From NCBI GenBank assembly GCA_902788035.1, contig CADAIL010000007.1, positions 46,869 to 110,868 on the forward strand: a stretch of 64,000 nt of DNA, given 5' to 3'. The stretch's first letter is position 1, and each line of letters begins with the position of its first letter. Shown here piece by piece: positions 9,688-55,970 of the stretch. The translations under genes were made by a program, and so were the position numbers. The stretch is from an uncultured Lachnospiraceae bacterium. Lineage in GTDB: Bacteria > Bacillota > Clostridia > Lachnospirales > Lachnospiraceae. The notes under the pieces were generated by a model. The model ran no database searches and was not told where the DNA came from. It was given only the letters and a program-made list of their open reading frames with translations.

Positions 9688-9896
9688 GAACAGTTCAGAC
9701 AGGCTGTTACGAAGTTCCGGGTCCGGCCGCAAACATCATCTTCATCGAAAAACGCAGTTCCTGCCCTTCGAGCTTGAGTAGAGGCGGCTTACCGCCTCTA
9801 CCCGATCTCTCCGGTCGGAACTGCAATGTTTTTCTCACGAAGATGGATGCTTTGCTGCCGGAGACGAATTGCAGGAACAGCCTGTCTGAACTGTTC
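9688..9896 (-). repeat. Family A ~200-nt rod-like palindromic element, copy 1
   Basis: 21-bp perfect terminal IR GAACAGTTCAGACAGGCTGTT; conserved arms CCGGCAGCAAAGCATCCATCTTCGTGAGAAAAACATTG / CGTTTTTCGATGAAGATGATGTTTGC. Confidence 0.9.
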
Positions 9897-9951
9897 CTCG
9901 CCTACATCCGAAGTCAGCCCAACTTACTCATCCTTCTATTAATAATTGATA

Positions 9952-12396
9952 TCACACATGACTCAAGATTAAAGTCATCTCTCCCCGGGCGGTGAGCACA
10001 CCCTCCAGCGCGGGTACGAAAACACTCTCTCCCGCTTTCAGCTCCTCCTCGCTCCCGAGGAAGGATACTTTACCGGTGCCGCTCATACATATGATCGAGG
10101 TGAACTTGCTCGTGTCCATCGGAATCCGGGTCTCTCCTTTGATCTCGTACACTGTCGCCTCAAAATACTTGCACCTGGTGACGACTGTGCCCGCGGAATC
10201 TTCCACCTGTTCAATCCCTGCAGGAACGAATTTCTTAAAGTTGAGGACATCAAGAGCTTTCTTCAGATGAAGCTCACGGGGATTTCCGAATTTGTCCCGA
10301 CGGTCAAAGTCATAGAGACGATATGTCGAATTGGAGCTCTGCTGTATCTCACAGACAAGATTGCCGCCGCCGATCGCGTGGACCGTCCCGGCGGGGATGT
10401 AATACACGTCGCCGGGCTTTGTCTCATAGTAGTTGAGAATATCCATGATCGTATTGTCAGCAACCCGGCGCTCTACTTCCTCCGCAGTGACATCACGGTT
10501 GAAGCCTACATAAAGGCCGGCCCCCGGCTCAGCGGCCATAACATACCACATCTCATTTTTACCGTATTCGTTTTCAAACTCCAGCGCGTAGTCATCATTC
10601 GGATGTACCTGGACAGACAGATTGTCTTTGGCATCTATGAATTTGACCAGAAGCGGGAAGTTCTGCAGCGGGCTGCACTTCCAGCCGAGCGCTTCCTTGC
10701 CCACGCCCTTCACATAATCATCAAAATACATACCGCGGTACCGTCCGCTCGCAATGATGCTGGGGCCCGCCTTGTGGGCAGACATTTCCCAGGCTTCCGC
10801 GATGATGTCATAATCGCACTTCATCCCATAAACGTCACGAAGCTTCGTGCCGCCCCACAGGTTATCCTTGAATGATGGAAGAAGCCTGACCAGCGGCTCA
10901 ACAACATATCCGCCGGAAATATTCTCAGAGTCTGCAGCATAGATCTCTGCTCCGCCCTCGAAACTTCCGACGGCTGTCTCCACCATGACCAGAGTCTCCT
11001 CACCCTGGTTGGAGATTGAGTGTTCACATCCGATCGGAATGTCAATATTGGAATTAATGCCGTAGACTCGGGATACGCCGTCCTTAATGATCTCTGCTTT
11101 TCCCTGAACGATTGTAAAGTTCTTGCTGCACTTAGCCAGACTGTGGGTTGGGATCGTATTGCCGGCAGGGATAAAAATCCGTCTGATCCGATAACCTTCA
11201 GCTTCCACCAGTTCCTCATAGTGTCCCCAGGGGCGATAAAAGACTTTACCGTTATCAGCTACGTCCGTCAGCTCTGAATGGTTTTTAACTATATCCTTGA
11301 CCTCACTGGAGCGGCCGTAGCGGCCGACATAGATGGCATCGGGTGTATTTGCGACAATGATGTTATCGAGTCCGTTGATCACGATCGCCTGCTCAGGGTA
11401 TGTATTGAAGACCACAGAATTATAGCAGTCCTCCTTAATGACGATGCCGCCGGCGTTATAGTCTGTGGCTGACAGATCCTCCAGGCTGTCGATCTGGCTC
11501 CACAGGAAGACGCCGCGCACAGCTGCCAGCTTGTCCGTCTTTTCAAGCAGAGCCTTTGCGATGTGCATCGGATTGAAGATTTTCTCCGCTTTAGCGGTAT
11601 AGTACACATAGTTTCCTGTCAGCGTAGGCGCGTCTATGAGAGCGCTCTTCTTCCACGCATCCTGCAGATCGTAGGTCTTTTCGGAATCCTCGACCATATA
11701 TGTCATATCAGCGCCTGCTGTGAGACGCTCATCGTAGACCGCCCGGCATTTGTAATACTCTTCCGGCTGCGCCAGACGAAGTTCGTTGAGAAAGACATCC
11801 GCTCTGAAAAGAAGCATGCCTAGATTACGGTAAACAGCCTCTTTCTTAAGGTCGATTAATGCACGCGCCGCAGCATCCGGCTTCTCTATGAACTTCCCGA
11901 CCGTCCCGTCATCGCGGAGCCCGAACACATAGCCGAACCTCGGATTTATTTCACTCTCTCTCAGTGTAAAGAGCGATATTTTACCGTCACGGGCATATTC
12001 CTTGGCCTGCATGACGCAATCCTTATAGTCTTTCTCACCGTTGCCGCTCTCCGGTCTGGGATAGATCACATGGTCTGCAACCACGACAAAAACATATTCC
12101 GACGGAACAATATCAAGGCATGCAAGCGCAATCGCATGCAGCGTGTCCCTGGAATTCTCCTCATAGACACAGCGATACGGAGTTCCCTGAAAAGCTTTCA
12201 TCTGATCTTCGATGATAAAACGGTAATCGCTTTTAGTCACGATGATAAATTCATCGCAGAATGGGAGATTTCTCGAGACTGTCTCCTGAAACAGAGAGTG
12301 ATTTTTCTGAATCTCAATGAACTGTTTCGGGTAATTTTTTCTTGATAACGGCCACAGGCGCTCGCCCTGTCCTCCGGCCAGGATCAGACATTTCAT
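9952..12396 (-). CDS. Fusion: mannose-1-phosphate guanylyltransferase-like + cupin + class I mannose-6-phosphate isomerase
   Basis: Start refined to MKCLILAGGQGERLWPLSRKNYPKQF (RBS AAGGAGG); RPWG cupin; C-terminal PLLVKFIDAKDNLSVQVHP..GKNEMWY..EIQQSS (PMI type I). Confidence 0.9.
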   Translation of the reverse strand: MKCLILAGGQGERLWPLSRKNYPKQFIEIQKNHSLFQETVSRNLPFCDEFIIVTKSDYRFIIEDQMKAFQGTPYRCVYEENSRDTLHAIALACLDIVPSEYVFVVVADHVIYPRPESGNGEKDYKDCVMQAKEYARDGKISLFTLRESEINPRFGYVFGLRDDGTVGKFIEKPDAAARALIDLKKEAVYRNLGMLLFRADVFLNELRLAQPEEYYKCRAVYDERLTAGADMTYMVEDSEKTYDLQDAWKKSALIDAPTLTGNYVYYTAKAEKIFNPMHIAKALLEKTDKLAAVRGVFLWSQIDSLEDLSATDYNAGGIVIKEDCYNSVVFNTYPEQAIVINGLDNIIVANTPDAIYVGRYGRSSEVKDIVKNHSELTDVADNGKVFYRPWGHYEELVEAEGYRIRRIFIPAGNTIPTHSLAKCSKNFTIVQGKAEIIKDGVSRVYGINSNIDIPIGCEHSISNQGEETLVMVETAVGSFEGGAEIYAADSENISGGYVVEPLVRLLPSFKDNLWGGTKLRDVYGMKCDYDIIAEAWEMSAHKAGPSIIASGRYRGMYFDDYVKGVGKEALGWKCSPLQNFPLLVKFIDAKDNLSVQVHPNDDYALEFENEYGKNEMWYVMAAEPGAGLYVGFNRDVTAEEVERRVADNTIMDILNYYETKPGDVYYIPAGTVHAIGGGNLVCEIQQSSNSTYRLYDFDRRDKFGNPRELHLKKALDVLNFKKFVPAGIEQVEDSAGTVVTRCKYFEATVYEIKGETRIPMDTSKFTSIICMSGTGKVSFLGSEEELKAGESVFVPALEGVLTARGEMTLILSHV

Positions 12397-12712
12397 AAGG
12401 TCCTCCTTTAAACGATGCTGACACACCAATGCGCATTGAACTATTTAAGTATATTTTAACATTACGTCCGAAAATGGCAACTCAAAGAATCTGTTAATTG
12501 TCTGACGACAACTCTGCGTCGCAGCGCTGACCTTGCGGCACAGCCGCTTCGATGTACGTTGGCCGAACGAGCAGGTTCGTGCGAGCACGACCTGCACGTT
12601 CGGCTTTATCGCGCAAAAAGAGCAGTGGCACTAACATGGCACCACTGCTCTTTTCGATTTATCCTATGTTATTCATTACATCCGCAGCAGTAAGTTCCCG
12701 CCTCTTTGGTCA

Positions 12713-13123
12713 TCATGCTTTTTCCTGCTCTTTCATCCTCTCGGCGCAGTCGCGGCACAGCCCGGTGAACTCAATTTCATGCTTTTCAGTAAAGAATCCG
12801 TTTTGCTCCAGCCGGCTGTCAAGATCCTGCATGTAAGGCAGAACCGCGTCCGCGATCCTGCCGCAGCATCTGCAGTGCAGATGGTAATGCGGCTCTGTCT
12901 TATAGTCATATCGCACATCTTCTCCCATCAGCTGGACCCGGGTAATGCTCCCCTCATCAGCAGCATCTGAAAGCACCCTGAACACGGTGGCGCGGGACAC
13001 CTTCTGCCCGTCCTTTGACAGATGCTCCGCGACCATGGAGGCCGTCGGGTGATTATCCATATGATACAGCGCATCCCGAATTGCCCGTTTCTGATGGGTA
13101 GTCCGCTTCTCTGTTTTCGACAT
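12713..13123 (-). CDS. Fur/PerR family transcriptional regulator
   Basis: HPTASMV...SRATVFRVL...HYHLHCRCCG...GLCRDC; start refined to MSKTEKR (RBS AGGAG). Confidence 0.9.
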   Translation of the reverse strand: MSKTEKRTTHQKRAIRDALYHMDNHPTASMVAEHLSKDGQKVSRATVFRVLSDAADEGSITRVQLMGEDVRYDYKTEPHYHLHCRCCGRIADAVLPYMQDLDSRLEQNGFFTEKHEIEFTGLCRDCAERMKEQEKA

Positions 13124-13272
13124 CAGATGATCTCCTAATACAATGCAGTTCCTAAGCGACCGGGCGGCAGTCATGCATACCGCGCCGGTTGTGACCTTAT
13201 CATGCTGTAATCGTACTTGAGATTACATCTCAATCTTAGCGTAACGGACGTTCATTGCCAAGACTAACCTTA

Positions 13273-13809
13273 CTATTCCACAATACTAAATGTGAGACAC
13301 TCTCCGTTATCTATCTGATAATCATAGAAATCACCGCCGTCGATCCGTGACATAACAGCCATGATCGTGCCGCCGTGAACAACAAAAGCGGCATCCCTGC
13401 CGTCCGCGATATCCATAGCCTCATAGAAGCCTTTCATGACCCGGTCAGTCATCTCATTCATTGATTCGCCTCCGGGAAAAGGCATTGTGCCGCCGCTGTC
13501 GATCCAGTTCTGATATTCAGGATTTCCGCTGAGTTCCATATAGTTTCTGCCTTCAAATAATCCGAAGTCACATTCACGGAAATCACTGATCACATGCATT
13601 TCCATTTCCGGATATATGATACCTGCGGTTTCGATACATCTCCGCATCGGACTCACGAACAAAATCTCCGGATGCCCGTACTCTCCCCTCGCAGCCCGCT
13701 CACTGAGCTCCTTAGCGCTCTCCGGCAGGAGCGATTCATCTGTCCTTCCTATATACCGCTTCTCTTTATTTCCCGGCGTACGTCCGTGCCGGATAAAATA
13801 CAGTTCCAT
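13273..13809 (-). CDS. cobC: Histidine phosphatase, alpha-ribazole phosphatase-like
   Basis: FIRHGRT..N, SPMRRCIET, RECDFG.FEG, VVHGGTI motifs; follows cobS. Confidence 0.75.
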   Translation of the reverse strand: MELYFIRHGRTPGNKEKRYIGRTDESLLPESAKELSERAARGEYGHPEILFVSPMRRCIETAGIIYPEMEMHVISDFRECDFGLFEGRNYMELSGNPEYQNWIDSGGTMPFPGGESMNEMTDRVMKGFYEAMDIADGRDAAFVVHGGTIMAVMSRIDGGDFYDYQIDNGECLTFSIVE

Positions 13810-13837
13810 AGCAATCTCCGGATTTCTTTGCGCAGCT

Positions 13838-14602
13838 TCAAATCATTATGAGCGAAGCCGCCGCTGCCACCGCGGCAAAGACAAGTTCAAGTTCAAGAAT
13901 AAGACAGCCGCACAGATCACCGCTGAGCCCGCCGAATTCACGCTCCATCTTTCTGCAGAAAATGAGCGCCCACAGAGCGCCGGCTGCCACTGCCGCAAAA
14001 CCGGCATACGGCGACACAATAATCATCATGGCCGACCACAGTACATTGGAGACGAGAAGCGCGATCCTCACCTTAGGCTTGTCAGAAGCCTCCGTGAATG
14101 TATACGCCATGCCTTCCCGCTTATTGCCGGGCATATAGACCATAGCCGTCCCGGTCAGCGATCTGGCATAAGCAAATCCGAAAGCCGCAATGAGAGCGTA
14201 TTCCGCATTAACTTCAGAGACAGACGCCAGCATAAGCAGATAGTATACAATTGTCATGATCACGGAAAACGCGCCTATATGGCTGTCTTCAAGAATCATC
14301 AGTTTCTTTTCCCGTGATCCCCAGGAATTTCGGGCGTCCATCGTATCCATGTAACCGTCCACATGAATACCGCCCGAAAGGAGTATGGGGAGCGCGGTCA
14401 GAAGGCATGCGCGCGCAGTCGTTCCCGCGCCGATATATATCAGAAGCCGGAAAAGAAGATACCATAAAAGACCAAGAACAGCTCCGACCAGCGGCAGAAA
14501 GCATAATACGAACCGCATGTTTTCCTTCTTCCACTCCACTTTTGGCATCGGTATTTTACTGTACATTGCAAATGCTATCACAAGCGATCGTACAACTCCC
14601 AT
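13838..14602 (-). CDS. cobS: Adenosylcobinamide-GDP ribazoletransferase
   Basis: GGIHVDGYMDTMD, DSHIGAF and FGGLSGDLCG motifs. Confidence 0.92.
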   Translation of the reverse strand: MGVVRSLVIAFAMYSKIPMPKVEWKKENMRFVLCFLPLVGAVLGLLWYLLFRLLIYIGAGTTARACLLTALPILLSGGIHVDGYMDTMDARNSWGSREKKLMILEDSHIGAFSVIMTIVYYLLMLASVSEVNAEYALIAAFGFAYARSLTGTAMVYMPGNKREGMAYTFTEASDKPKVRIALLVSNVLWSAMMIIVSPYAGFAAVAAGALWALIFCRKMEREFGGLSGDLCGCLILELELVFAAVAAAASLIMI

Positions 14603-14616
14603 CCGAGCATCTCCTG

Positions 14617-16906: not shown

Positions 16907-17019
16907 TATGCATATGCCTCCAAATTATTCTTGTCTGTTTCAGGTGCTGTACGGTCCGCGCGATGCGCTTCGGCCTTATCGCGCAAGAAAAAAGACGTCC
17001 TCGGAAGGACGCCCTTAAG

Positions 17020-17105
17020 CGGAGAGGATGGGATTCGAACCCATGCGCCCGTTAGGACAAACGGTTTTCAAGACCGCCTCGTTATGACCGCTTCGATACC
17101 TCTCC
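17020..17105 (-). tRNA. tRNA-Ser(TGA)
   Basis: GGAGAGGTATCGAAGCGGTCATAACGAGGCGGTCTTGAAAACCG...GGTTCGAATCCCATCCTCTCCG; upstream TTGCTT-17-TATAAT promoter (17133..17161). Confidence 0.95.
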
Positions 17106-17169
17106 ATATATGCTGTCTCAGACAGCTAAATTATTATAACAAAGCCTGCGCAAAAAAGCAACCACAAAA

Positions 17170-21586: not shown

Positions 21587-21720
21587 GCTGTTCCTCCTGT
21601 GTGTCCGGGCTTTGCGGACACGTCCGCTTCTTTGATGGCGCGCTATGTGCGGGCGGAATCTAAGTATACCACGAGTTTTCTTTTTTGCAAACACATGCGC
21701 TGCATACTGTAAATCTGAAA

Positions 21721-21817
21721 TAGTTCGGCTGGCTGCAGCGGATGATCAGGAACCGGCGCAAGCATCATCTTCATCGAAAAACGCCGGTCCTTCCAGATTT
21801 AACCGCCTCTTGAACTA
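21721..21817 (-). repeat. Family A half copy (one arm only)
   Basis: Reverse complement GGACCGGCGTTTTTCGATGAAGATGATGCTTGCGCCGG..GCAGCC..GAACTA matches the 3' arm of the full copies. Confidence 0.8.
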
Positions 21818-27885: not shown

Positions 27886-28243
27886 GACCGCATCTCCTCT
27901 AAAAAATCAAGAACACCCCGGCGATATTGCCGCGATGAAGAATAAAAATGTATGCACGTTCCAAAACAACATGTGGACATAATGCATACAAACAAATGCT
28001 ATATATAGTTATATTATAGCATAATTTTCTGATATTTGTATAAATACTCACATATTTAACAAACATGTAACACTCTTCACAATTATTTTACAGATTATAG
28101 CCCGTTTCAAACGGAGCCTCACATGGCTGAGTTCACGGAATGTATCATGCTGATTGCAAGTACTGCCGCACACGAACTACGATATTGTTTAATCCATCCC
28201 TGTGTGATAAACTTAAGTATAAGTTAAGGGTCCGGACCGGACG

Positions 28244-28298
28244 ATGTCAGCTGACGTCGGCCTGCTTCCGTCACCGGACTTGCGAGCGAGATTTAAAT
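28244..28298 (+). repeat. Degenerate family B copy
   Basis: ATGTCAGCTGACG....CC...T.CC...CC...CTTGCGAGCGAGATTTAAAT resembles the family B consensus; 22 nt before the hprK ATG. Confidence 0.45.
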
Positions 28299-28320
28299 TT
28301 TAAAGAAAAGAGGGTTCATA

Positions 28321-32970: not shown

Positions 32971-33136
32971 GTATATGATGTCCGCTCTTACGGCGCGGCA
33001 CTCCTCCTTCGAACATAGTCATAGATGGTATTATTTTAAATCAAATAAATCTACATTGCAATATACAAGTCACGACTCAATAATCGCGTTCGCAGCGGGA
33101 TCGCCGCGGTTCGTCGCAGTTCGCCATGGACAGAAA

Positions 33137-33329
33137 AGTTCAGACAGGCTGCATCATCATTTCGTTTCCGGCAGCAGAGCATTCATCTTCGTGAGAAAAA
33201 CATTGCTGGTCCTTCACTGAGAGATCAGCAATGCACATGCATTGCTAAGCTCTCAGATAGGACCTGCGTTTTTCGATGAAGATGATGTCTGCGCCGGATT
33301 CGGGAACTGTCTTGCAGCCTGTCTGAACT
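33137..33329 (+). repeat. Family A element, copy 2
   Basis: AGTTCAGACAGGCTGCA...TGCAGCCTGTCTGAACT with the same internal arms as copy 1. Confidence 0.9.
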
Positions 33330-33531
33330 GTTACAGCGGATATTAATACGGGAAGGCTCCTTACGCGTTAGTCCCTGCGCATCACCAAAAAAAGACTGCC
33401 GTATACGCGGCAGTCTCATATGGGGCCACTGATCAAGAACGTCTCGGCGCTCCTGCCGCGACGTGTGCGGCGATTTTTCCTCCCGCTGCGCACGTCTGCG
33501 ATCCACGATAGTTTTCATTCTGCGTCAGAGA

Positions 33532-35805
33532 TTAAATCTGTTCAGCCTTGTTTTCCACCGGGATCTCATCGGCTTCGTGTTCTTCAGTCTTTTTCTCCTC
33601 CGACTCCATTTTTACCAGGTCGATCATCGGAGCATCCGGGTTCGGAACTGCCATGATCTGCTTCTTAGCAGTTTCCTCCTCACTGACTTGAGGATTTTCT
33701 TCGCTGCCTTCGGGTCCGGAAACAGTGCCCTGCTCTGGTGTTTCACTTCTTTCGCCCGCCTCCGGTGCCGGCCTTCTGACAGGCCTGCGTCTCGGTGTGC
33801 CGTCCGGATTCATCATAGGCCGTCTCGGGCGGCGTCTCGGTGTCCCGTCCGGGTTCATCGGGCGTTCACGGCGCGGAGCCGGGGAACCCGTTTCAGCCTT
33901 GTCGCCGTTATCCGTGATTCTTCCCTCGATCCTCGGGACGGATTCATCTGTTTCCGGGATTCCTTCGACTTCACGGAATATCTTCATGAACTCCTTACCG
34001 GTGATTGTTTCCCTCTGGATCAGATACTCAGCCAGGCGGTCCATGGTGCTCCTGTGCTCGCGAAGCATCCGGAGAGCCTCGGCGTACGACTTCTTAAGTA
34101 TAAGCATGACCTCATGGTCAATCTCGGTCGCCGTCGCGTCGCCGCAGTTCAGATAAGTTCTGCCGTCCAGATACTGATTCTCCTGAGTGACCAGACCGAT
34201 AAGGCCGAACTTCTCGGACATACCGAACTGCGTGATCATCGCGCGGGCAATCTTTGTCGCCTTCTCAATATCATTGGCAGCACCCGTAGTCACAGTATCA
34301 AAAACGATTTCCTCAGCTGCTCTTCCGCCGAGAGCCATGACGATCTGTGCTTCAAGTTCTTTCTTGGTATTAAGGTATTTCTCCTCTTCCGGCACGTTCA
34401 TAACGTAACCGAGCGCCCCCATCGTTCTCGGGATGATGGTGATCTTCTGCACCGGCTCAGCGTTCTTCTGAAGAGCTGAGAGCAGTGCATGACCAATCTC
34501 ATGGTAGGAGACGATACGCCTCTCTTCCACACTGAGGATGCGGTCCTTTTTCTCCTTGCCGACGAGAACGACTTCAACTGCATCCAGCAGGTCCTTCTGG
34601 CTTACCTGGTGGCGTCCGTTCTTGACGGCCAGGATCGCTGCCTCATTGATCATATTGGCAAGATCCGAACCGACCGCGCCGCCTGTGGCAAGGGCAATCG
34701 CGTCGAGGTCTACTGTGTCGTCCATGAGAACATCCTTCGAGTGGACTTTAAGAATCGCAATACGTCCCTTGAGATCCGGTCTGTCAACGATGACACGTCT
34801 GTCAAAACGTCCCGGGCGCAACAGTGCGGGGTCAAGGACCTCCGGCCGGTTGGTAGCTGCTATGATAAGGAGGCCCTTGGATGCCTCGAAACCGTCCATC
34901 TCAGCGAGCAGCTGGTTGAGTGTCTGCTCACGCTCGTCATTGCCGCCGTAGCGGCCGCCGTCGCGTGCCTTACCTATAGCGTCGATCTCATCAATGAAAA
35001 TGATGCACGGCGCGTTCTTCTTCGCCTCCTCAAAGAGGTCACGGACACGGCTCGCGCCGACACCGACGAACATCTCTACAAATTCAGAACCGGACAGCGA
35101 GAAGAAGGGTACATGGGCTTCGCCCGCCACAGCCTTGGCAAGAAGTGTCTTGCCTGTACCGGGAGGTCCGACCAGCAGAGCTCCCTTCGGAAGCTTGGCA
35201 CCGATTTCGGAATACTTGGCCGGGTTGTGCAGGAAATCTACGCACTCCTGAAGGCTTTCCTTGGCCTCATCCTCACCGGCCACATCCTTGAAAGTAACCC
35301 CTGTGTCCTGCTGGATGTAGGTCTTGGCCCTGCTCTTGCCGACGCCCATCATACCGCCGCCGCGGCCCATCCGGTTCATGAAGATGCTGATTATAATCAT
35401 AAAGAGGACGAACGGGATAAGGAATGACAGGATCGAGTAAATGATTTCTGACATCATTGATGCCTCGACTGCCTTGTACTCTACCCCGTATTTTTCAAGG
35501 CGCTTGGTGAGAGCGTTCCCATCCTCGATTGTCTTCGTGTAATACTTGATCGTCCCGACGTCATTGCCGTTCGTTTTCGGAGTGATTTCAATCCGGGAAG
35601 ATCCGATTTCCACACTCGCGATCTCATCGTTCTCGAGCATATCGATGAACTTGTCGTACGTTATCTCTCTGGATGTGCTGGAGTCCAGCGCTCCCGAAAA
35701 AAGACTCATACCGATGAGGCCGACCATGAGGCAGACCAGAAAAATGATCAGGGACTGCCCGTTCCGGTTTCCACCGCTATTGTTCTTGTTATTGTTATCG
35801 TTCAT
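33532..35805 (-). CDS. ftsH: ATP-dependent zinc metalloprotease FtsH
   Basis: Start refined to MNDNNN (RBS GAAAGGAG); [25 protein letters not shown]. Confidence 0.96.
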
Positions 35806-36001
35806 ATTACTCCTTTCGGTCCTGTGCACTTTAGGTGCTTGAAAAACCAAGCTATATTATATGAATTTATAACCGATAATGCAAGGTCTGGCTCCTGCGG
35901 GAGTTGTGAAATTTCTGTAAATTCATTTGCCGCGCCAAATAAGGGCAAATGTTTCTCTGCTCATTTTTTTATGGAAATGAACCCCATAATCTGCTATTAT
36001 A

Positions 36002-36134
36002 ATTCAAGTCTTGCTCGCGAGACTTGGCGCGGGATTTGGGTCAGCGTCAGCTGACATAATCCCATACCAAATCCCTGCGCATCCACGCGGAGCGTTTATC
36101 TCAGTTGTGGGTTGTGACCCACCACTGAGATAAT
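36002..36134 (-). repeat. Family B full composite copy
   Basis: Reverse complement: TTATCTCAGT-hairpin ... GATGCGCAGGGATTTGG...TTATGTCAGCTGACGCTGACCCAAATCCCGCGCCAAGTCTCGCGAGCAAGACTTGAAT. Confidence 0.8.
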
Positions 36135-36178
36135 GTTTTTTTAGAGACAGATCTGACAATTAGATAGTCTAAGGAGGC

Positions 36179-37663
36179 ATGTATATGAAAATCGGTTTCA
36201 GTAATGAAAAGTATCTCGAAATGCAGTCAAACATGATAAGAGAGAGGATCAGTGAGTTCGGCGGCAAGCTTTATCTCGAGTTCGGCGGCAAACTCTTCGA
36301 CGATTACCATGCTTCCAGAGTTCTGCCGGGCTTCCAGCCCGATTCCAAGCTTCGTATGCTGCTCCAGCTGAAAGAACAGACTGAGATCGTCATCGTTATA
36401 TCCGCGACTGATATAGAAAATAATAAAGTCCGCGGCGACCTCGGCATCACATACGACACTGATGTGCTCCGCCTCATGAACGAATTCCAGAGCTGCGGTC
36501 TCTATGTCGGCTCGGTCGTCATCACACATTTTAGAGGTCAGGATGCCGCGATCCTCTTCAGAAATCATCTGGAAAAATACGGTGTGCGCGTTTATCTCCA
36601 CTACCTGATCAAAGGATATCCGAACAATATTCCTCTCATTGTAAGTGACCAGGGCTATGGGAAAAACGATTATATCGAGACGACAAGACCTCTGGTCATC
36701 GTGACGGCTCCGGGTCCGGGATCCGGAAAGCTGGCCACCTGCCTCTCCCAGCTCTATCACGACCACAAACGGGGAATCAACGCCGGCTACGCGAAATTCG
36801 AGACATTCCCGATCTGGAATCTGCCTCTCAAGCATCCGGTCAATCTGGCTTACGAGGCAGCTACGGCCGATCTCAACGATGTCAACATGATCGACCCCTT
36901 CCATCTGGAAGCCTATGGTAAGACCACGGTCAATTACAACAGAGATGTGCAGGCGTTCCCGGTGCTCCAGGCGATCTTCGAGTCCATATACGGTGAGTGC
37001 ACTTACAAGTCTCCCACGGATATGGGCGTCAACATGGCAGGCAACTGCATTATTGACGATGAAGTCTGCAAAGAAGCCTCCAGACAGGAGATCATACGGC
37101 GGTATTATGAGGCTCTTGCAGGCCTTGCCGACGGCACAAGGCGCGAGGAAGAGGCCGATAAAATCGAAGTCATTATGAATCAGGCTCACGTAAAGAAAGA
37201 GGACCGCATCGTTGTAGGTCACGCTCACAAACGCGCGGAGGAGACCGGCGCTGCCGCCACAGCCATTGAGCTCCCGGACGGCGCGATCGTCACCGGCAAG
37301 ACCTCTGACCTGCTCGGACCGACATCTGCAGCCCTGCTCAATGCGCTCAAGGTACTTGCAGGCATTCCGCACTCTGTCAAGATTATCACACCGGAGGCCA
37401 TCGCTCCTATCCAGAAGCTCAAGACGACCTATCTTGGCGGAAAGAACCCGAGGCTCCACACAGATGAGGTCCTTATCGCCCTCTCAACTTCGGCAGCTAC
37501 AGATCCGAACGCGGCGTCCGCGCTCGAAGCTCTTCCGAAGCTCCGCGGCTGCCAGGCTCATTCATCTGTCATGCTCTCACCGGTCGATATCAGACTCATG
37601 AAGAGAATCGGCGTACAGATGACCTGTGAACCGGTCTACGAGAACAAGAAGATTTTCCACTAA
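36179..37663 (+). CDS. DUF1846 (UPF0371) family protein
   Basis: KLYLEFGGKLFDDYHASRVLPGF, GPGSGK.ATCLSQLYH, AKFETFPIWN, YEAATADL family signatures. Confidence 0.9.
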   Translation: MYMKIGFSNEKYLEMQSNMIRERISEFGGKLYLEFGGKLFDDYHASRVLPGFQPDSKLRMLLQLKEQTEIVIVISATDIENNKVRGDLGITYDTDVLRLMNEFQSCGLYVGSVVITHFRGQDAAILFRNHLEKYGVRVYLHYLIKGYPNNIPLIVSDQGYGKNDYIETTRPLVIVTAPGPGSGKLATCLSQLYHDHKRGINAGYAKFETFPIWNLPLKHPVNLAYEAATADLNDVNMIDPFHLEAYGKTTVNYNRDVQAFPVLQAIFESIYGECTYKSPTDMGVNMAGNCIIDDEVCKEASRQEIIRRYYEALAGLADGTRREEEADKIEVIMNQAHVKKEDRIVVGHAHKRAEETGAAATAIELPDGAIVTGKTSDLLGPTSAALLNALKVLAGIPHSVKIITPEAIAPIQKLKTTYLGGKNPRLHTDEVLIALSTSAATDPNAASALEALPKLRGCQAHSSVMLSPVDIRLMKRIGVQMTCEPVYENKKIFH

Positions 37664-40131: not shown

Positions 40132-40615
40132 GCCTCTCTTCCTTTCTGTTGTGTATCAAAGTACATAATCCTCCAGTAAATCGCGATCTCTGATCGCGCG
40201 CGAGCTGCGCAACGCACTTGTGCGTTTTCCTCTGCGCAGCTCTGCGATCCGCCGGAGGCTCATTCTTCAACGCATGATTTACGCATTCCTCTCATGACTA
40301 AAGTCACGAGTATCCTGCGTTGAAGAATGAAAAAAGGCACCTTAAGGTGCCTAAGTCAATACGCCTCCTCTTCTGCTCTGAGGCAGCTTCAAAAACGCGT
40401 TAAAAAGGGTGTGGAATCTCTTCCACACCCGAAGTATACTTCGCTCACCGCAGGGATGCAAATGTTTTTGCTTCCCCGCCCTAAAGTCCATAATATTCTG
40501 CCATTTTAATGGTAAATTATTAGCATAAAATCAAGAACGCCTCGGCGTTCTTGCCGCGCCGCGCAAAGCGCGAAGCACCTTCTTAAATCACTTATCACGA
40601 GTATTTAACCTCTCA

Positions 40616-41497
40616 TCATGAGAAAGTGATTGTGTAGGACGCCTCGAAGGTCTCCCCGGCAGCCAGGCACTGCTCATAGTCTCGCTCCGGCAGCTCGCCC
40701 TCGAAATACGTCTTGTCTGCACGACCGTACCACGGCTCAAGGCACACGAACGGTGCCTCCGGTTTCGGGGACCAGACTCCGAACAGAGGAGCTGTAAAGT
40801 CCACTGTGACGAACGGAGCCTTCTTAGAATCAAGGAGTACCAGCTTGTGAGCCTGGTCCTTCTCCACGATCAGTGTATCGATGTCGAACAGGTCGTCTGT
40901 GATCCTTATCATCCCGTCATCCAGCTCATAGGGACGGATCTCATCTGTGAGGCCGCCAAGGACCAGGTCTTTGATTGATACGTCCAGAGTCTTCTTCGTG
41001 TCGAATCCGAGATAGCACTCGTTCTTTTTATCCCCGCTGCCCATGGCAGGTGTGTTGAAAGCAGGATGCGCGCCGATCTGGAAATACATATCCTGATCGC
41101 CCGTATTGAATACCTTCCAGATGACCTTGAGAGTCCTGCCCGATAGAGCATAGCCGACCTCAAGTCTGAACTTGAACGGATATACAGCGAGGGTGTCTGC
41201 GCTGTCGCAGAGCGCAAATCCAATGTCAGCACCTTCCACAGAAGCCTCTTCGAATTCGCTTCTCCTTGCAAATCCATGCTGCTTCATCTCATAGGTCTTT
41301 CCCGCATAGCGAAATATGTCGTAAGCTACATTTCCTACGATCGGGAAGAGGACCGGTGAAGTCCATCCCCAGAAAGCAGGATCTGCCTGCCACATGTATT
41401 CGCGCCCGGTCTCATTATCGAGAACTGAACGAATCTCAGCGCCGCGTGAGCTGACCTTCACAGCAAGTTCGTCATTTTTAAGAAAGAATTCTGCCAT
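40616..41497 (-). CDS. Aldose 1-epimerase family protein (LacX-like)
   Basis: Start refined to MAEFFLK; EYMWQAD..FW..SPVLFPIVG, HGFAR, GAHPAFN, FVCLEPW. Confidence 0.92.
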   Translation of the reverse strand: MAEFFLKNDELAVKVSSRGAEIRSVLDNETGREYMWQADPAFWGWTSPVLFPIVGNVAYDIFRYAGKTYEMKQHGFARRSEFEEASVEGADIGFALCDSADTLAVYPFKFRLEVGYALSGRTLKVIWKVFNTGDQDMYFQIGAHPAFNTPAMGSGDKKNECYLGFDTKKTLDVSIKDLVLGGLTDEIRPYELDDGMIRITDDLFDIDTLIVEKDQAHKLVLLDSKKAPFVTVDFTAPLFGVWSPKPEAPFVCLEPWYGRADKTYFEGELPERDYEQCLAAGETFEASYTITFS

Positions 41498-44294: not shown

Positions 44295-44425
44295 TTATCT
44301 CAGTGGGGGTAGCCCCCACTTCCGCAAGGTAGTTAAATCAATTTCCTGTTCGTATCAGAGTCAAGTCACAACCCCACTAACGCTGACCCGAATTCCGCGC
44401 CAAGTCTCGCGAGAGAAACTTGAAT
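44295..44425 (+). repeat. Family B composite copy
   Basis: TTATCTCAGTGG... CGCTGACCCGAATTCCGCGCCAAGTCTCGCGAGAGAAACTTGAAT ending 5 nt from the ispF stop. Confidence 0.75.
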
Positions 44426-44430
44426 CATGG

Positions 44431-47072: not shown

Positions 47073-47081
47073 ACAGCCTCC

Positions 47082-49066: not shown

Positions 49067-49140
49067 AGCGCTCTTCCTCCTTTATAACCCACTGTATCAT
49101 AATGGCACTTTGTGTCAGATTTGTGAAGTCCGATTTTAGC

Positions 49141-49343
49141 GTGACAGTTCAGACAGGCTGTTCTTATGTGACGTTTCCGGCAGCAAAGCATCCATCTTCG
49201 TGAGAAAAACATTGCATATCCGACTGAGAGACCGAAACATGCGAGGCGTGTTGCAGGCTCGCAGGGAAGGATATGCGTTTTTCGATGAAGATGATGTTTG
49301 CGCCGGATTCTGAAACTCCGCTACAGCCTGTCTGAACTGTCAC
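49141..49343 (+). repeat. Family A element, copy 3
   Basis: 21-bp perfect terminal IR GTGACAGTTCAGACAGGCTGT / ACAGCCTGTCTGAACTGTCAC. Confidence 0.9.
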
Positions 49344-49443
49344 AATTTCGGCTCAATCTCACAAGTGAGACTGTGCTGACAAAAGAGAAGGACTGCCGCA
49401 CAAGCAGCAGTCCCTCGTCTTTATATTTTGCGCAAACTCTTGA

Positions 49444-49884: not shown

Positions 49885-49917
49885 AGTATTTACCTCCTCA
49901 AAAGGTGTGTGTAATTA

Positions 49918-51225: not shown

Positions 51226-51543
51226 AATAATAGCTCCTCTCTATTAAGTACTCAGGCAGCCGCAAAAGACGATACTTTCTCACATCTGTCTGATATAAGT
51301 ACTGGATGAAATTTTACCACTTTAAAGTGGTGTAACGCAACAGTTAATTTGCATTTATAATAAATATATTTAAGCATATCCGCGAATTTGGCGGACGCAG
51401 GGAAATATTTATGCGTCCTCAAATGCGGTCCGCTCAAAGACATGTTTACTAACACTTAAAGATGCGTTATGATTGCTAAGACTTACCAATTGACAATACT
51501 CGGCTTATCGAGCGGTACCGAAATTATGTTTCATGAGGTGACA

Positions 51544-52266
51544 ATGGAAAACACGATCAGAATAACAGCCGGAGAGCTCCGGAATTTCTATACAGCCCTA
51601 CTCGCAAAACTTGACTTTGATGCTGCCAGAAGGCGGACACTGTCAGAGATCATACTGGCATCATCCGACTATAAGGCCGCCTCTGTTATTTTTGACCGGG
51701 TCACGTCCGGTCTCATAGATCCGAAAGCGCTGCCGGTCCATGCCGGAAAAAAACGCCGTTCGGTGATGATCGACGGCTCCCGCACCGAGCCTCATTTGAC
51801 ATGCCTTCTGGCTATGGAATGCGCATGTGAGACCGCAGCGGCCGAAGGAATCGGCATGGTCCTGGTCCGCGGGCTCCTGCCGGTCCGGCGGCTCAGGCTC
51901 TACGAGAAAGTCGCAGCCGCTCACGGTCTTGTCGCCGAAGTCAAAGAAGCTGTCTATGCGGATGAGACGGACGCAAAAATAACCCACAGCTTTTTAGCTG
52001 TGGATCCGGGGCACTTCGGAGACCGGGAAAGTCTCTCGCCGCTCCTTATTGAATTTGCTCAGAAAACCGGCAATGCAGGGATTCCGGGGCGCAGCGGAGT
52101 CGATCCTACGTTTGAAAATGAAGGCACTGCCCGCACCTATACGGGCAGTGTCAACGCAGTCTATAAAAATAAAGATCTCATCGCGGTCCCGTCCTCGGTC
52201 ATTGACGAGTGGAACGAGATTGCAGCCGCGCTGGAGATAAAATCTCCGCTGATTGAAAACGATTAA
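51544..52266 (+). CDS. Shortened, degenerate Ldh_2 (malate/L-lactate/ureidoglycolate dehydrogenase type 2) fold protein
   Basis: ELRNF, GLIDPKA.P, IDG, AMECA..A...GIG.VLVR, FLAVDPGHF, IPG match the family scaffold; 240 aa; RBS GAGGTG. Confidence 0.65.
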   Translation: MENTIRITAGELRNFYTALLAKLDFDAARRRTLSEIILASSDYKAASVIFDRVTSGLIDPKALPVHAGKKRRSVMIDGSRTEPHLTCLLAMECACETAAAEGIGMVLVRGLLPVRRLRLYEKVAAAHGLVAEVKEAVYADETDAKITHSFLAVDPGHFGDRESLSPLLIEFAQKTGNAGIPGRSGVDPTFENEGTARTYTGSVNAVYKNKDLIAVPSSVIDEWNEIAAALEIKSPLIEND

Positions 52267-52685
52267 TCCTCCAGCGTTTCTTTGCCAAAACCGTACGGAA
52301 GCAGCTCACCGAGGGTGAGCTCTTTTGTTTCTTCCGGGGATCTCGCAAGGACCACGGTAAAAGTATCGGGATCGCAGAATTCCCTGAGAACCTGACGGCA
52401 GACACCGCAGGGCGGGCAGAAATCGGTGACTTCGCCTTCCTTTCCGCCGACGACACAGATGGCCGTAAAATCCCGATCGCCGCACGCGACCGCGCGGAAG
52501 ACAGCGGTCCTTTCCGCACAGTTCGACGGGCCGTAAGCAGCGTTTTCGACGTTGCAGCCCCCGTACAGCATACCATTTGCACTCAAAAGAGCCGCGCCGA
52601 CTTTAAAATGGCTGTAGGGGGCATATGAGTACTCCAGCATCCTGAAGGCTTCTGCGACCATTTCCTTTTTGACCTGTTCGTTCAT
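52263..52685 (-). CDS. cdd: Cytidine deaminase
   Basis: YAPYSHFKVGAA, NVENAAY, CAERTA, PCGVCRQ. Confidence 0.96.
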   Translation of the reverse strand: MNEQVKKEMVAEAFRMLEYSYAPYSHFKVGAALLSANGMLYGGCNVENAAYGPSNCAERTAVFRAVACGDRDFTAICVVGGKEGEVTDFCPPCGVCRQVLREFCDPDTFTVVLARSPEETKELTLGELLPYGFGKETLED

Positions 52686-52699
52686 AAATGTCTCCCGGT

Positions 52700-53422
52700 T
52701 CAGATAGCGGTCTCGAGCGCAAGCTCCATCATCTTCGTAAAGGTCTTCTGGCGATCCTCGGCACTCAGTTCCTTCCCTGAATAGATTTCATCGGAAATTG
52801 TAAAAATGGCGAGAGCTTTCTTGTTCCAGCGGGCAGCGTTCATATAGAGGGCTGCCGCTTCCATCTCAAGACAGATGATACCCATCTTGCTCCAGATTTC
52901 GGGAACATCCCTGTCCATGTTGTAGAATACATCCTCAGACAGGCAGTTGCCTACAACGATGTCCGTGCCAAGCCTCTCGGCGGTCTTCGCGCATTTATAG
53001 AGAAGATCCCAGGAAGCGATTGCTGAGAAATGTCCGTTAAGGCAATACTGGTCCTGCCATGACGAGGTCGTGCTTGCTCCCTCCGCCACAACTATGTCGT
53101 TGATGTGGACGTTCTCATTGATCGAACCGGCTGAGCCGATGCGGATCAGGTTCTCGCACCCATAATAATTAAAAAGTTCAAATGAGTAAATGCCTATGGA
53201 CGGCATACCCATTCCGCTGCCCATGACGGAAACTTCTTTTCCCTTATAGGTCCCGGTATATCCGAGGATATTCCGGACTCCGTTCACAAGACGCGCGTTT
53301 TCAAGAAAGTTTTCGGCAATAAACTTCGCTCTCAGCGGATCTCCCGGTAAAAGGCATGTCTTTGCGAAGTCTCCCGGCATCGCTGAATTGTGCGGGGTAG
53401 GTGTGTGTGCGCAATGAGCCAT
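52700..53422 (-). CDS. deoD: Purine nucleoside phosphorylase (DeoD type)
   Basis: TPHN, PGDPLRAKFIA, GMGMPS.GIY, RIGSAG, EMEAA, FTISD. Confidence 0.95.
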   Translation of the reverse strand: MAHCAHTPTPHNSAMPGDFAKTCLLPGDPLRAKFIAENFLENARLVNGVRNILGYTGTYKGKEVSVMGSGMGMPSIGIYSFELFNYYGCENLIRIGSAGSINENVHINDIVVAEGASTTSSWQDQYCLNGHFSAIASWDLLYKCAKTAERLGTDIVVGNCLSEDVFYNMDRDVPEIWSKMGIICLEMEAAALYMNAARWNKKALAIFTISDEIYSGKELSAEDRQKTFTKMMELALETAI

Positions 53423-53476
53423 AGTCTCCTCCTTTCATATCCAACCATGATCTCCAGGCAGATCATGCATTTATCT

Positions 53477-54235
53477 CTACAGATCTTTTATCGCTTCTAT
53501 TGCGACCCTGATGCACAGGTCAGTGTCGCGCACGACCGGATTTTCAAGCCCCAGCTTTGCTCTCTCCTGATTGGCCATGACCAGCATAACCGCACCGACA
53601 CGGACATGTCTTGCAGCACCGGCAATAAAAAGAGTCGAGCTCTCCATCTCGGAGCCGAGACACCCCATTCTGACCCAGGCATCCCATTTGTTCATAAGTT
53701 CATAGGAAACCGGCATCTTCTCCGGCTCGTGCTGTCCGTAAAAAGCATCCTTGCACTGCACGACGCCCACATGATACGGGACATCGAGAGTCTTCGCCGC
53801 CCGCACCAGAGCTGTGGTGACCTCAAAATCCGCTGCCGCGGGGTACTCGATCGGAGCATATTCGCGGCTTGTGCCGTCCATGCGCACTGCCGCCGTCGCA
53901 ACTATCACGTCGCCGCTCTTCACATTCGTCTGCATACCGCCGCATGTACCGACGCGGATAAACGTATGCGCGCCGCACCGGACAAGTTCCTCGAGGGCGA
54001 TGGCTGCGGACGGACCGCCGATGCCGGTCGACGTGACTGACACTTTCTTTCCGGCGACGGTACCTGTATAGGTAATATACTCCCTGTTGTCCGCGATGAG
54101 GACCGGATCATCAAAATACTTTGCAATCTTTGCGCAGCGCTTCGGGTCACCCGGCAGTATGACAATCTCGCCGACCTCCCCGGGGGCTACCTGAATGTGA
54201 TACAGCTTTTCTTTGTCTGCCGAATAATTAATCAT
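53477..54235 (-). CDS. udp: Uridine phosphorylase
   Basis: [37 protein letters not shown]; start refined to MINYS. Confidence 0.93.
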
Positions 54236-54247
54236 TTGCACCTCCGT

Positions 54248-54658
54248 TTATCTTCCAAATGCCAGTACGGTAATCGCAAGGCAGATGACTCCGATCGGAA
54301 TCATGACAATTGCCTTTCCGACGCCGTTAAACCTGTTGATTCTGAAAATATCCGGGTGATAAATATGCTTCCATATCGTGTATGTCTCCCCCGGCACGTA
54401 AGCCTGGGCGTCCTTGACGCTGAACTTATCCTCCGATACGCCCGGCGCTTCCACTCCGTGTATTTTTATCTTGAACAGCAGCTGCCTTCTCTCTGTCTCT
54501 TTTCCTATGGCTTTTTTATTTCTGACCGGCTTCTCGAAGACTCCTTCATCTCTGACTTTATAGAAAAAGAATGGCTGGATAATGAAATTCATTCCGCCCA
54601 TGATCATAATGATCGAGATAAACAGAAGCAAAAAACCTACTGACTGAAATAAATCCAT
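54248..54658 (-). CDS. Hypothetical two-TM membrane protein
   Basis: Hydrophobic N- and C-terminal segments around a soluble loop; RBS GAGAGGT. Confidence 0.65.
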   Translation of the reverse strand: MDLFQSVGFLLLFISIIMIMGGMNFIIQPFFFYKVRDEGVFEKPVRNKKAIGKETERRQLLFKIKIHGVEAPGVSEDKFSVKDAQAYVPGETYTIWKHIYHPDIFRINRFNGVGKAIVMIPIGVICLAITVLAFGR

Positions 54659-54972
54659 AAAATACCTCTCTCATACCGCGGCATCGCTGCGCGGTAATGT
54701 TTCTTCATATATGTTCATTATTATCGCATATGTTTCCGGTCATGCCTACAAAAAAGCATGCAAAAAAAGCAGCCGGATCCGCTTTTTAGAATTTCATCTC
54801 AAAATTTTTATTTTTACTTTATAAATTTTATATTTTTTTCAGGTCACGTACAAATTCGTTTCACATTTAGCCTGTATAGTATACATCAGATAGAGAAACA
54901 ACCACTCACTATCTCCCCCCTCATTAAGAATAAGAGAGAGAGACCTGCAAGGGTCTCTTTTTCTTATGTCTT

Positions 54973-55019
54973 ATATCTCAGTGAGAACCCGCGCAAGTCT
55001 CGACGAGCGGGACTTGAAC
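54973..55019 (+). repeat. Family B internally deleted copy
   Basis: TATCTCAGTG..CCCGCGCAAGTCTCGACGAGCGGGACTTGAAC, adjacent to the nth stop codon. Confidence 0.7.
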
Positions 55020-55020
55020 T

Positions 55021-55653
55021 TCAGATATTCTTAGCGCATATCTCAGAAAGGCAGCACCTGTCACAGTATGGCCTGGTTCTTGCCGTGCACACTTCCCTGC
55101 CGTGCAGCACGAACCTGTGACAGAGAGCATTTCCCTCCTCCGGAGGGACAATTTTCCACAGAGCCATCTCTACCTTCTTCGGGTCCTTTATTCCGTCCAC
55201 AAGACCGATTCTGTTCGAAAGCCTTATACAGTGTGTATCAGTAACAATGGCCGGCTTTCCGAATACATCTCCCATAATGAGGTTCGCGCTTTTTCTGCCC
55301 ACTCCGGGCAGCTTCAGCAGTTCGTCAAATGAATCCGGCACCTTTCCCTGATACTTGTCACGCAAAATCCGCATGCAGGCGCTTATGTCTCTGGCTTTAC
55401 TCCTGCCGAGACCGCACGGGCGGACTATCTCCTCGATCTCTTCCGGTGTCGCTTCCGCCAGCGCATTCACATCCGGGTATTTTTTATACAGATCTTCGAC
55501 GATCACATTGACCCTTGCGTCAGTGCACTGGGCTGCCAGCCGCACGCTGACAAGCAGCTTCCACGCCTCATCATAATCCAGCGTACAGTCGGCATCCGGG
55601 TATTCCGCAGCAAGCAGTTTTATGACCTCCAATGTAAGTTTTTTCTTATCCAT
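55021..55653 (-). CDS. nth: Endonuclease III
   Basis: Start refined to MDKKKL; LAAQCTD, LPGVGRKSAN (HhH), VTDTH, C..TRPYC..C 4Fe-4S motif. Confidence 0.95.
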   Translation of the reverse strand: MDKKKLTLEVIKLLAAEYPDADCTLDYDEAWKLLVSVRLAAQCTDARVNVIVEDLYKKYPDVNALAEATPEEIEEIVRPCGLGRSKARDISACMRILRDKYQGKVPDSFDELLKLPGVGRKSANLIMGDVFGKPAIVTDTHCIRLSNRIGLVDGIKDPKKVEMALWKIVPPEEGNALCHRFVLHGREVCTARTRPYCDRCCLSEICAKNI

Positions 55654-55773
55654 GCCAATACTCCTTTTCACTCCCGGTATTATACCACAGGATTGCCCCT
55701 CTGTCACTTTGCGCGCGTATCTCACGACTGTCTCCGACTGTCTAAAGTCACGGGCATTGCGCGATGAAGATAA

Positions 55774-55970
55774 AACAGTTAGGCAGACTTATTATGCAGT
55801 TCGTTACCGGCAGCAAAGCATCCATCTTCGTGAGAAAAACATTGTCGGTCCGACTGAGAGATCAGCAATGCGTATGCATTGCTAAGCTCGGAGGGCAGGA
55901 CCGACGTTTTTCGATGAAGATGATGTTTGCGGCCGGTTATGGAACCCCGTCGCAGCCTGTCCGAACGGTT
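55774..55970 (+). repeat. Family A element, copy 4 (decayed terminal IR)
   Basis: Internal arms CCGGCAGCAAAGCATCCATCTTCGTGAGAAAAACATTG / CGTTTTTCGATGAAGATGATGTTTGCGGCCGG intact; ends AACAGTTAGGCAG / GCAGCCTGTCCGAACGGTT. Confidence 0.85.

Follow-up and report, generated by a model that had tools for sequence, protein, structure and literature searches.

A probable hairpin-forming MITE with IS66-like ends is dispersed in rumen Lachnospiraceae genomes

The window analyzed here is a 64,000-nt stretch of contig CADAIL010000007.1 from an uncultured Lachnospiraceae bacterium, and the element under study is a dispersed, hairpin-forming repeat that we call family A. We find that family A is probably a non-autonomous DDE transposon, i.e. 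a miniature inverted-repeat transposable element (MITE), with IS66-like ends. The family is old and has reached a high copy number within a clade of rumen Lachnospiraceae. An earlier note, made from the letters of the window, had proposed a mobile hairpin family recognized as folded single-stranded DNA (ssDNA) or RNA. The mobile hairpin and its compensatory variation are borne out by our analysis. However, an 8-bp target-site duplication, random orientation, inversion in place, exchange of modules, and neutral decay of the pairing all speak against recognition of a folded strand.

Family A is a high-copy repeat of rumen and gut Lachnospiraceae

Using the right-arm 21-mer CGTTTTTCGATGAAGATGATG as the search word, we scanned a collection of species-representative genomes for relatives. 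The matches listed included at least 94 stretches, and all 94 came from rumen or gut Lachnospiraceae metagenome-assembled genomes of at least six species. The loci fetched for comparison total 0.76 Mb, again from at least six species (single loci and contigs carry L numbers below). They yielded 91 full and ~18 partial copies, and an nhmmer search brought the full-length count to at least ~111. The full-length members span 190-211 nt and are non-coding, intergenic, and dispersed, which is the size and copy number of a MITE. Measured from CAGTTCAG to CTGAACTG, the standard copies are 189-203 nt long, with one shorter copy of 174 nt. Three long copies (274-290 nt) hold a nested insertion within the apex, and deletion derivatives and solo ends also occur. 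Family A carries no open reading frame (ORF) of its own.

The right-core k-mers were ~170-230 times deeper than the flanking single-copy DNA in three of the four metagenomes carrying the organism. In the fourth, the depth reached ~580 times, probably with a contribution by other species. There are roughly 200 copies per genome, and the k-mer depth is consistent with the window's density of ~4.5 copies per 64 kb. The repeat breaks up metagenome contigs; at this copy number, the family would interrupt assemblies at ~200 places per genome and promote rearrangements.

The family is apparently undescribed. Searching Rfam at gathering scores gave no match in the window, and with copy 3 at E up to 10 the sole match was a weak, chance one just outside the element; the earlier opinion that this is not a named family was thus upheld. 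BLAST against plasmids and phages returned no family-A match, a scan of viral contigs gave 0 matches, and literature searches turned up nothing relevant on a Lachnospiraceae MITE or an IS66-derived hairpin MITE.

The ends carry inverted repeats and an 8-bp target-site duplication

The consensus ends of the family are GTAACAG...CTGTTAC. The terminal inverted repeats expected of a MITE are present and measure 16-22 bp, (GTAA)CAGTTCAGACAGGCTG on the left and CAGCCTGTCTGAACTG(TTAC) on the right, and the outer 16-mer CAGCCTGTCTGAACTG is found at both element ends. The true termini lie 4 nt beyond CAGTTCAG and CTGAACTG, so that the copy coordinates given below are revised from the earlier ones.

We scanned 75 copies for direct repeats between the two flanks at all offsets. 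A single clear register emerged, in which the left 8-mer ends 4 nt before CAGTTCAG and the right 8-mer starts 4 nt after CTGAACTG, that is, 4 nt outside the CAG/CTG. In this main register, 11 of the 75 copies matched at six or more of the eight positions; 2000 permutations averaged 0.59 such copies and never exceeded 4. Allowing offsets of ±2, at least 6/8 matched in 22 of the 75 copies (6.1 expected) and 8/8 in three (0.1 expected). Examples are GCCTCAGA|gtaaCGG...CTGttac|CCCTCAGA, CCTGTGGC|gtgaCAG...tcac|CCCGTGGC, and CATCACAT|gctgCAG...ctgc|CATCACTT. A 2-bp TA duplication was also considered and did not fit, the gtga/tcac and ggaa/ttcc flanks being inverted rather than direct. The target-site duplication of a MITE, fixed in length, is thus present and has decayed in most copies. 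The earlier note had seen no target-site duplication. This holds for the window copies, three of which match at 5/8, 3/8, and 1/8 positions (the 5/8 pair being the candidate 8-mers ATTTTAGC / AATTTCGG of copy 3), but not for the family.

Most duplications are lost, those that survive differ mostly by transitions, and different species share many insertions; together these indicate that the family is old. The defined ends with an 8-bp duplication point to a DDE transposase that makes staggered cuts in double-stranded target DNA. We propose that a DDE-type transposase acting in trans would move the element, making 8-bp staggered cuts at terminal inverted repeats that begin GTAACAGTTCAG.

The hallmarks of IS66 are 20-30-bp inverted repeats starting GTAAGCG and 8-bp direct repeats (PMC11946415), and ISBst12 is an IS66 subgroup of Firmicutes that is listed in Geobacillus (PMC8024623). 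Both end features appear in family A as an inverted repeat starting GTAA and as 8-bp direct repeats. Membership in IS66 is nevertheless tentative, as these two features amount to a resemblance of the ends only. From the end sequence and the duplication length, a partner with GTAACAGTTCAGACAGGCTG-like repeats would be expected, and its transposase gene may be rare or extinct. A match of the ends to an annotated insertion sequence (IS) with target-site duplications had been named in the earlier note as grounds for giving up its reading; the duplications are there, and an annotated IS with these ends was not found.

Each copy folds as a hairpin with strongly covarying stems

Every copy folds into a single long, near-perfect hairpin of ~205 nt, whose core is conserved and asymmetric, whose stems covary, and whose apical hairpins are interchangeable. 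The minimum free energy of copy 1 was -129.1 kcal/mol, compared with -66.8 ± 4.7 for shuffles (z = -13.4), and its complementary strand folds almost equally stably. The arms are inverted copies of each other with the subterminal motif CATCTTC-N3/4-GAAAAAC in each, so either strand is able to form a ~100-bp hairpin. Two helices of 7 bp each, CATCTTC/GAAGATG and GAAAAAC/GTTTTTC, make up the core, together with a fixed GA/G internal loop and two bulges (ATT and C). The core is nearly invariant in ~110 copies, including those not selected by the search word. The inner GC-rich hairpin is flanked by conserved A5 (GAGAAAAAC) and T5 (GTTTTTC) tracts, and in the window copies a T5 run follows it on both strands. 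This arrangement resembles a weak bidirectional terminator, although the window contexts do not require one.

Covariation was analyzed in an alignment of 72 copies (alignment A2) against 500 shuffles. In the 58-pair hairpin, 92.6% of cells pair. Double-sided changes occur in 28 of the 58 pairs (16.6 ± 1.9 in shuffles) and in 195 cells (61 in shuffles), and none of the 500 shuffles equaled the observed value on any covariation measure. Sliding the partners by 1-3 columns lowered the covariation score from 0.187 to at most 0.056. RNAalifold, run on the same alignment, gave 44 pairs, 16 of them with double-sided changes. The strong compensatory covariation claimed earlier is therefore far above chance, and the stems, apical hairpins, and outermost pairs quoted for it are all present as written.

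The variation has three hot spots, namely a 4-bp stem beside the core (columns 80-83 with 150-153), four central positions of the terminal repeats (columns 16-19 with 209-212), and the apex, where several unrelated perfect hairpins are found. The 20-pair core helix has zero double changes in the 72 copies. Divergent copies covary in the core too, with GAAAAGC/GCTTTTC in four of them and GAAAGGC/GCCTTTC in L011.

As a separate observation on the apex, the long variants at L033:3382-3677, L047:5662-5942, L065:7492-7782, and L046:4181-4516 have an extra hairpin-forming segment of ~90 nt in the apical hairpin, which holds GCCAAAGTGCCT...AGGCACCTTGGC.

The element inverts in place between its terminal repeats

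Comparing the flanks across genomes, we found seven orthologous pairs in the same orientation and four loci with both flanks opposite, of which three (L006/L024, L008/L029, and L020 vs L022 and L028) are clean in-place inversions. At L008/L029, flank identity is 94-95% as far as the terminal repeat, and the interior reaches 96% only when compared in the element's own frame. Two further inversions came from contigs carrying proteins identical to window proteins. In total, the interior is inverted with the flanks unchanged at five loci. At the copy 3 locus, one of 10 contigs is inverted (L098 vs L096; L098 is ~95% identical overall), with an identical intergenic length. At the copy 2 locus, the inner 159 bp are exactly reverse-complemented in one of 10 contigs (L123 vs L121), although the ftsH of this contig differs at only 10 of 2319 positions (99.6% identical). 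Copy 4 keeps one orientation throughout 10 strain contigs.

In L123, neither the 18-bp repeat GTTCAGACAGGCTGCA nor the outermost bases, which are asymmetric (AACAG at the left end, CTTTT at the right), have moved. The crossover therefore lies inside the terminal repeat: the arms recombined with each other, and the element was not excised and reinserted. L055 compared with L009 and the window was rejected as a further case, since the junctions differ and a second partial copy is present. The flips give a natural example of a palindromic transposon turning over between near-identical strains, and in metagenomic screens they could be miscalled as invertons or programmed phase variation.

Modules are exchanged between copies, and resident copies decay

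The apex and stem modules differ between orthologous copies (for example, window copy 1 vs L009), which points to conversion from other copies. The variable stem, the junction, and the apex are adjacent and make up a single ~70-nt segment flanked by the two invariant cores, so that an exchange anchored in the cores moves both stem sides together. Flanks are exchanged between copies as well: the left end of L015 is joined to the right flank of window copy 3.

We followed the decay of the non-core base pairs in 13 orthologous pairs. One-sided changes affected 76 base pairs, of which 52 were broken and 24 remained wobble-paired, about the share expected without selection. Two-sided changes numbered 18 against ~6.5 expected from independence, and 10 of them keep pairing. 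Thus, pairing is unprotected in resident copies, yet paired double changes are in excess, which is what arm-to-arm or inter-copy conversion predicts.

The element is oriented at random relative to the ORFs on its flanks (20 co-directional, 27 antisense, 10 convergent, and 5 divergent). No promoter is evident within window copies 2 and 3. Each is placed after the terminator of the upstream gene and before the next gene, and the gene that follows copy 3 has a promoter-like site in front of it. In metatranscriptome assemblies, the family is contiguous with flanking genes; as these contigs are unstranded and may include DNA, they show at most passive co-transcription.

We suggest three sources for the covariation. 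The first would be recombination between the arms, as seen in the precise inversion bounded by the 16-22-bp terminal repeats, presumably along with conversion of one arm by the other. The second would be the transfer of the central block from one copy to another, which carries the two stem sides along as a unit, and the third, selection on active source (master) copies rather than on resident ones. The random orientation, the lack of an evident promoter, and the neutral loss of pairs indicate that the covariation comes mainly from recombination and master-copy selection and not from RNA or ssDNA recognition; inversion and module exchange largely account for it. At present, most copies would be old fossils in intergenic spacers, passively co-transcribed. 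Recombination can thus produce textbook-looking covariation without selection at the RNA level, a caution for the discovery of non-coding RNAs.

Two kinds of sequence change were seen next to the copies. Short tandem duplications (units of 7-45 nt, repeated 2-4 times) abut the element ends at L003, L016, L039/L056, L071, L078, and L007; some repeat the terminal part of the right arm. They suggest that replication slips at the palindrome. Immediately beyond the right end of copy 4, at positions 694-743 of L111-L120 (window ~55966-56015), there are two haplotypes with 13-14 differing sites within 50-90 nt, while the neighboring genes of the same strains are nearly identical (2-15 sites differ in 2 kb). 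This split looks like the boundary of a recombination tract at the repeat.

Search for an autonomous partner and for empty sites

We looked for an autonomous partner, i.e. an IS with the same ends, in the 0.76 Mb of loci and in the viral and metagenome scans, and found none, which weighs against a DDE-driven MITE. In the loci, no left and right arms stand more than 200 nt apart, as they would with a gene between them, and none of the 723 ORFs of at least 200 aa is multi-copy. The five solo terminal repeats are all remnants. Scanning metagenomes for the terminal repeat without the MITE interior gave five matches, all remnants or mini-derivatives. No recombinase, RAYT, or TnpA gene adjoins a copy in the loci or the window, and the statement of the earlier note that the window holds no transposase stands. 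One ORF, in L036, ends in a right-arm remnant and was considered as the 3′ end of a transposase; it was set aside because it showed no transposase-like sequence and no paralogues in the loci, as judged without a Pfam scan. A mini-derivative of ~90 nt, with two terminal repeats and one core fragment, was observed in metagenome contigs L106:592-700 and L108:7884-7974.

Joining the flanks and searching by BLAST gave one candidate empty site, a diverged locus without the element (L052 vs L086, 78% identity) whose junction is not precisely readable. For three window loci, all 30 of 30 strain contigs carry the element. Deletion derivatives like the window remnant are found at orthologous loci, e.g. 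the full copy of L012 against the remnant of L013. We dismissed "5′-truncation" as a retroelement-like signature, because partial copies with only the left arm also exist and L012/L013 is a deletion after insertion. The apparent excess of right-arm-only remnants is due to ascertainment bias.

Features of the core that a DDE-MITE does not explain

Besides the missing partner, several features of the ends and the core count against the transposon explanation. A recognizable duplication is left in only about one quarter of the copies and is never perfect in the main register. Only about half of the copies have the terminal GTAA, and the commonest standard pair at the four terminal positions occurs in 35-56%. 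The terminal repeats themselves covary (columns 16-19 with 209-212), which a DDE transposase does not explain. A plain DDE-MITE likewise does not account for the fixed asymmetry between left and right core (GTGA vs GAT, ATT bulge, C bulge) in ~110 copies. Between orthologues, the left core diverges by ~3% compared with 12-15% elsewhere, an estimate partly biased by copy ascertainment; only the left core counts here, because the right core was ascertained by the search. G·T pairs exceed A·C pairs, by 29 to 13 in the orthologue comparisons and by 121 to 67 family-wide. Finally, the top strand (as aligned, with the left core CATCTTCGTGAGAAAAAC) outfolds its complement in 60 of the 72 copies with RNA parameters and in 70 with DNA parameters, an advantage that is largely a shared property of the core. 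These features could reflect homogenization by conversion, a site for the transposase or a host protein on both arms (CATCTTC-N3/4-GAAAAAC), or constraint on one folded strand, and they leave room for a constrained folded single strand or a protein-binding core.

Alternative explanations

We consider it unlikely that family A is a dispersed structured RNA, such as an mRNA-stabilizing or RNase III-processed hairpin or a bidirectional intrinsic terminator made of the inner GC-rich hairpin and its A5 and T5 tracts, for which mobility is only the means of spread. Such an RNA would fit the strong covariation, the excess of G·U over A·C pairs, and the top strand, which folds better by ~7 kcal/mol. 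It would also fit the T5 run after the inner hairpin on both strands, the contiguity with flanking genes in metatranscriptome assemblies, and the finding that copies have persisted at shared loci in different species and that their core evolves slowly. However, no promoter is evident, the orientation to transcription is random, and close strains can differ by an in-place flip of the element. A terminator is not needed at copies 2 and 3, each of which already follows the terminator of the upstream gene, and a simple terminator scan passes over the element. Pairs are lost from resident copies at the neutral rate, no Rfam family matches, and the RNA evidence consists of unstranded contigs that possibly contain DNA.

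An equally low probability goes to the idea that the invariant asymmetric core, instead of being left over from transposase binding, is a structure-specific site that a protein of the host or the element recognizes on one folded strand, or else belongs to a bidirectional terminator or insulator that has been domesticated. In that case, selection on structure would maintain the family as a mobile functional module at loci conserved between species. If the core proves to bind a protein or to terminate transcription, family A would be a case of transposon domestication.

The proposal of the earlier note, a single-strand hairpin element of the REPIN, IS200/IS605-end, or attC-like kind that is moved as folded ssDNA by a Y1/HUH enzyme or a tyrosine recombinase, is very improbable. 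Pairing rather than sequence is conserved along most of the stem, including the terminal repeats, and the conserved extrahelical bases and bulges recall the logic of attC. The better folding of the top strand in 70 of the 72 copies under DNA parameters and the ~10 copies centered in another palindrome would also be expected. On the other hand, an 8-bp duplication at defined ends is not made by Y1/HUH or integron-type reactions, and no recombinase, RAYT, or TnpA gene lies beside the copies in the loci or the window. Nor are the copies in arrays or biased in orientation relative to gene direction, taken as a proxy for replication direction.

Least probable of all is a programmed invertible switch (inverton), with the terminal repeats as sites of a dedicated invertase and flipping that regulates the neighbors: the inversion is indeed precise and bounded by inverted repeats, has been seen repeatedly (at five loci), and differs between near-identical strains, but the interior is nearly palindromic so that flipping changes almost nothing, neither an internal promoter nor a nearby invertase gene was found, ~200 dispersed copies beside housekeeping genes do not suggest a regulon, and the four metagenomes with the copy 2 locus show no contig of the alternative orientation, which, though contigs can miss rare variants, gives no evidence for rapid programmed switching. 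A non-autonomous DDE transposon with IS66-like ends is thus the explanation that we favor.

Copies in the window and other repeats

The four full copies and one half copy reported earlier were all found at their places (Table 1). A search of the window with a hidden Markov model (HMM) of the family returned these five places and no others. The right-arm 21-mer occurs five times in the window and the left-arm 22-mer CATCTTCGTGAGAAAAACATTG four times, against 0 in shuffles for each. The flanking genes are housekeeping genes, encoding PBP1, FtsH, TsaE, endonuclease III, PTS EIIC, and cyclophilin.

Table 1. Family-A copies in the 64,000-nt window.
Feature	Position	Strand	Length	Sequence features	Neighbors
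Full copy 1	9687..9897	-	211 nt	ends GGAACAG...CTGTTCC; apex module GTAGAGGCGG-TAAG-CCGCCTCTAC	DUF624 gene / mannose-1-phosphate guanylyltransferase/isomerase gene
Right-arm remnant	21716..21817	-		right core, degenerate right terminal repeat, and apex-module fragment (AGAGGCGG); left arm deleted; HMM positions 127-204 covered	tsaE / cyclophilin gene
Full copy 2	33132..33334	+	203 nt	18-bp inverted repeat GTTCAGACAGGCTGCA.../...TGCAGCCTGTCTGAAC	ftsH terminator (33392-33417, minus strand) / PBP1 gene
Full copy 3	49141..49343	+	203 nt	perfect 21-bp terminal inverted repeat GTGACAGTTCAGACAGGCTGT	between ACT-domain gene terminator (49387-49416, minus strand) and promoter-like site of ABC transporter gene
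Full copy 4	55772..55972	+	201 nt	left terminal repeat degenerate (ACAGTTAGGCAGACTT)	divergent spacer, endonuclease III gene / PTS EIIC gene

A 102-aa ORF at 55764-56072 (+) overlies copy 4. It is called as a gene in some public assemblies only, has no Pfam match, and is probably a spurious call due to the repeat.

Other repeats were noticed as well. A second dispersed palindromic repeat has the core CAAGTCTCGCGAGCGAGACTTG at window positions 2944-2969, 8085-8110, 28274-28299, 36005-36030, and 44401-44426. This core lies inside repeats of ~50-90 nt, with longer matches among 2880-2968, 36002-36090, and 44377-44428; the bin 35755-36405 has a metagenome depth ~10-20 times that of single-copy DNA. 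A third, short repeat, (A)ATCAAGAACNYCTCGGCG.TYCTTGCCGCG, is found at 27903-27934, 33429-33460, and 40527-40558 near intergenic terminators, one of its copies lying ~95 nt to the right of family-A copy 2. The spacer at 40.2-40.6 kb (40150-40620) holds several hairpins and shows raised metagenome depth.

Palindrome B, which is absent from the window, is a perfect hairpin of ~46 nt, GGGGACGGTTCTTTTCRCGTGR...YCACGYGAAAAGAACCGTCCCC, which stands alone at L042:1503-1548. In ~10 loci (L011, L033, L034, L052, L053, L060, L077, and L093 among them), a family-A copy sits at its center, giving a composite hairpin of ~240 nt. The family-A copies inside palindrome B have degenerate outer ends, and B shares the motif ACRGTTC with the A terminus.

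The window also holds paralogous segments 5-6 kb apart (1-1338 vs 6006-7346, ~75% identical; 3386-3537 vs 8478-8629, 87%) and a tRNA match at 3560-3618 that covers model positions 7-64 only.

Comparison with known systems

Family A shares with invertons a segment bounded by inverted repeats that occurs in both orientations in close relatives. Unlike them, it has a palindromic interior and neither a dedicated recombinase nor an internal promoter, and mixed orientation within samples was not detected. Integron attC sites form arrays next to an integrase, whereas family-A copies are solitary, lie beside housekeeping genes, and are randomly oriented. Like the REP/REPIN and RAYT systems, the family consists of dispersed intergenic hairpins with structure-preserving variation and a very high copy number. 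REPINs, however, are pairs of short REP hairpins without a target-site duplication, and their RAYT gene is flanked by REPs; family A has the duplication and no such gene in the window or the loci.

With the IS66 family, including ISBst12, family A has in common the GTAA start of the repeats and the 8-bp duplication. Only these first four bases agree with the canonical GTAAGCG, and no IS66-type transposase with family-A ends was found. In addition, IS66 members are 1.4-3 kb long and, unlike family A, are not palindromic over their whole length.

Bacterial MITEs that fold as long hairpins include Correia/NEMIS of Neisseria, ERIC/IRU of enterobacteria, and RUP/BOX/SPRITE of pneumococcus, and compensatory changes have been reported for ERIC. 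Family A differs from Correia, ERIC, and RUP in having no sequence similarity to them, a rumen Lachnospiraceae host, an unusually invariant and asymmetric subterminal core, interchangeable apical hairpins, and documented strain-level inversion in place; its duplication is 8 bp, as opposed to the TA of Correia. Like them, it is made of non-coding intergenic repeats of 100-250 nt in tens to hundreds of copies, with terminal inverted repeats, imperfect palindromy of the whole element, subfamilies of internal modules, and co-transcription with neighbors. By this comparison, family A behaves like elements of the Correia, ERIC, or RUP type and belongs to none of these families.

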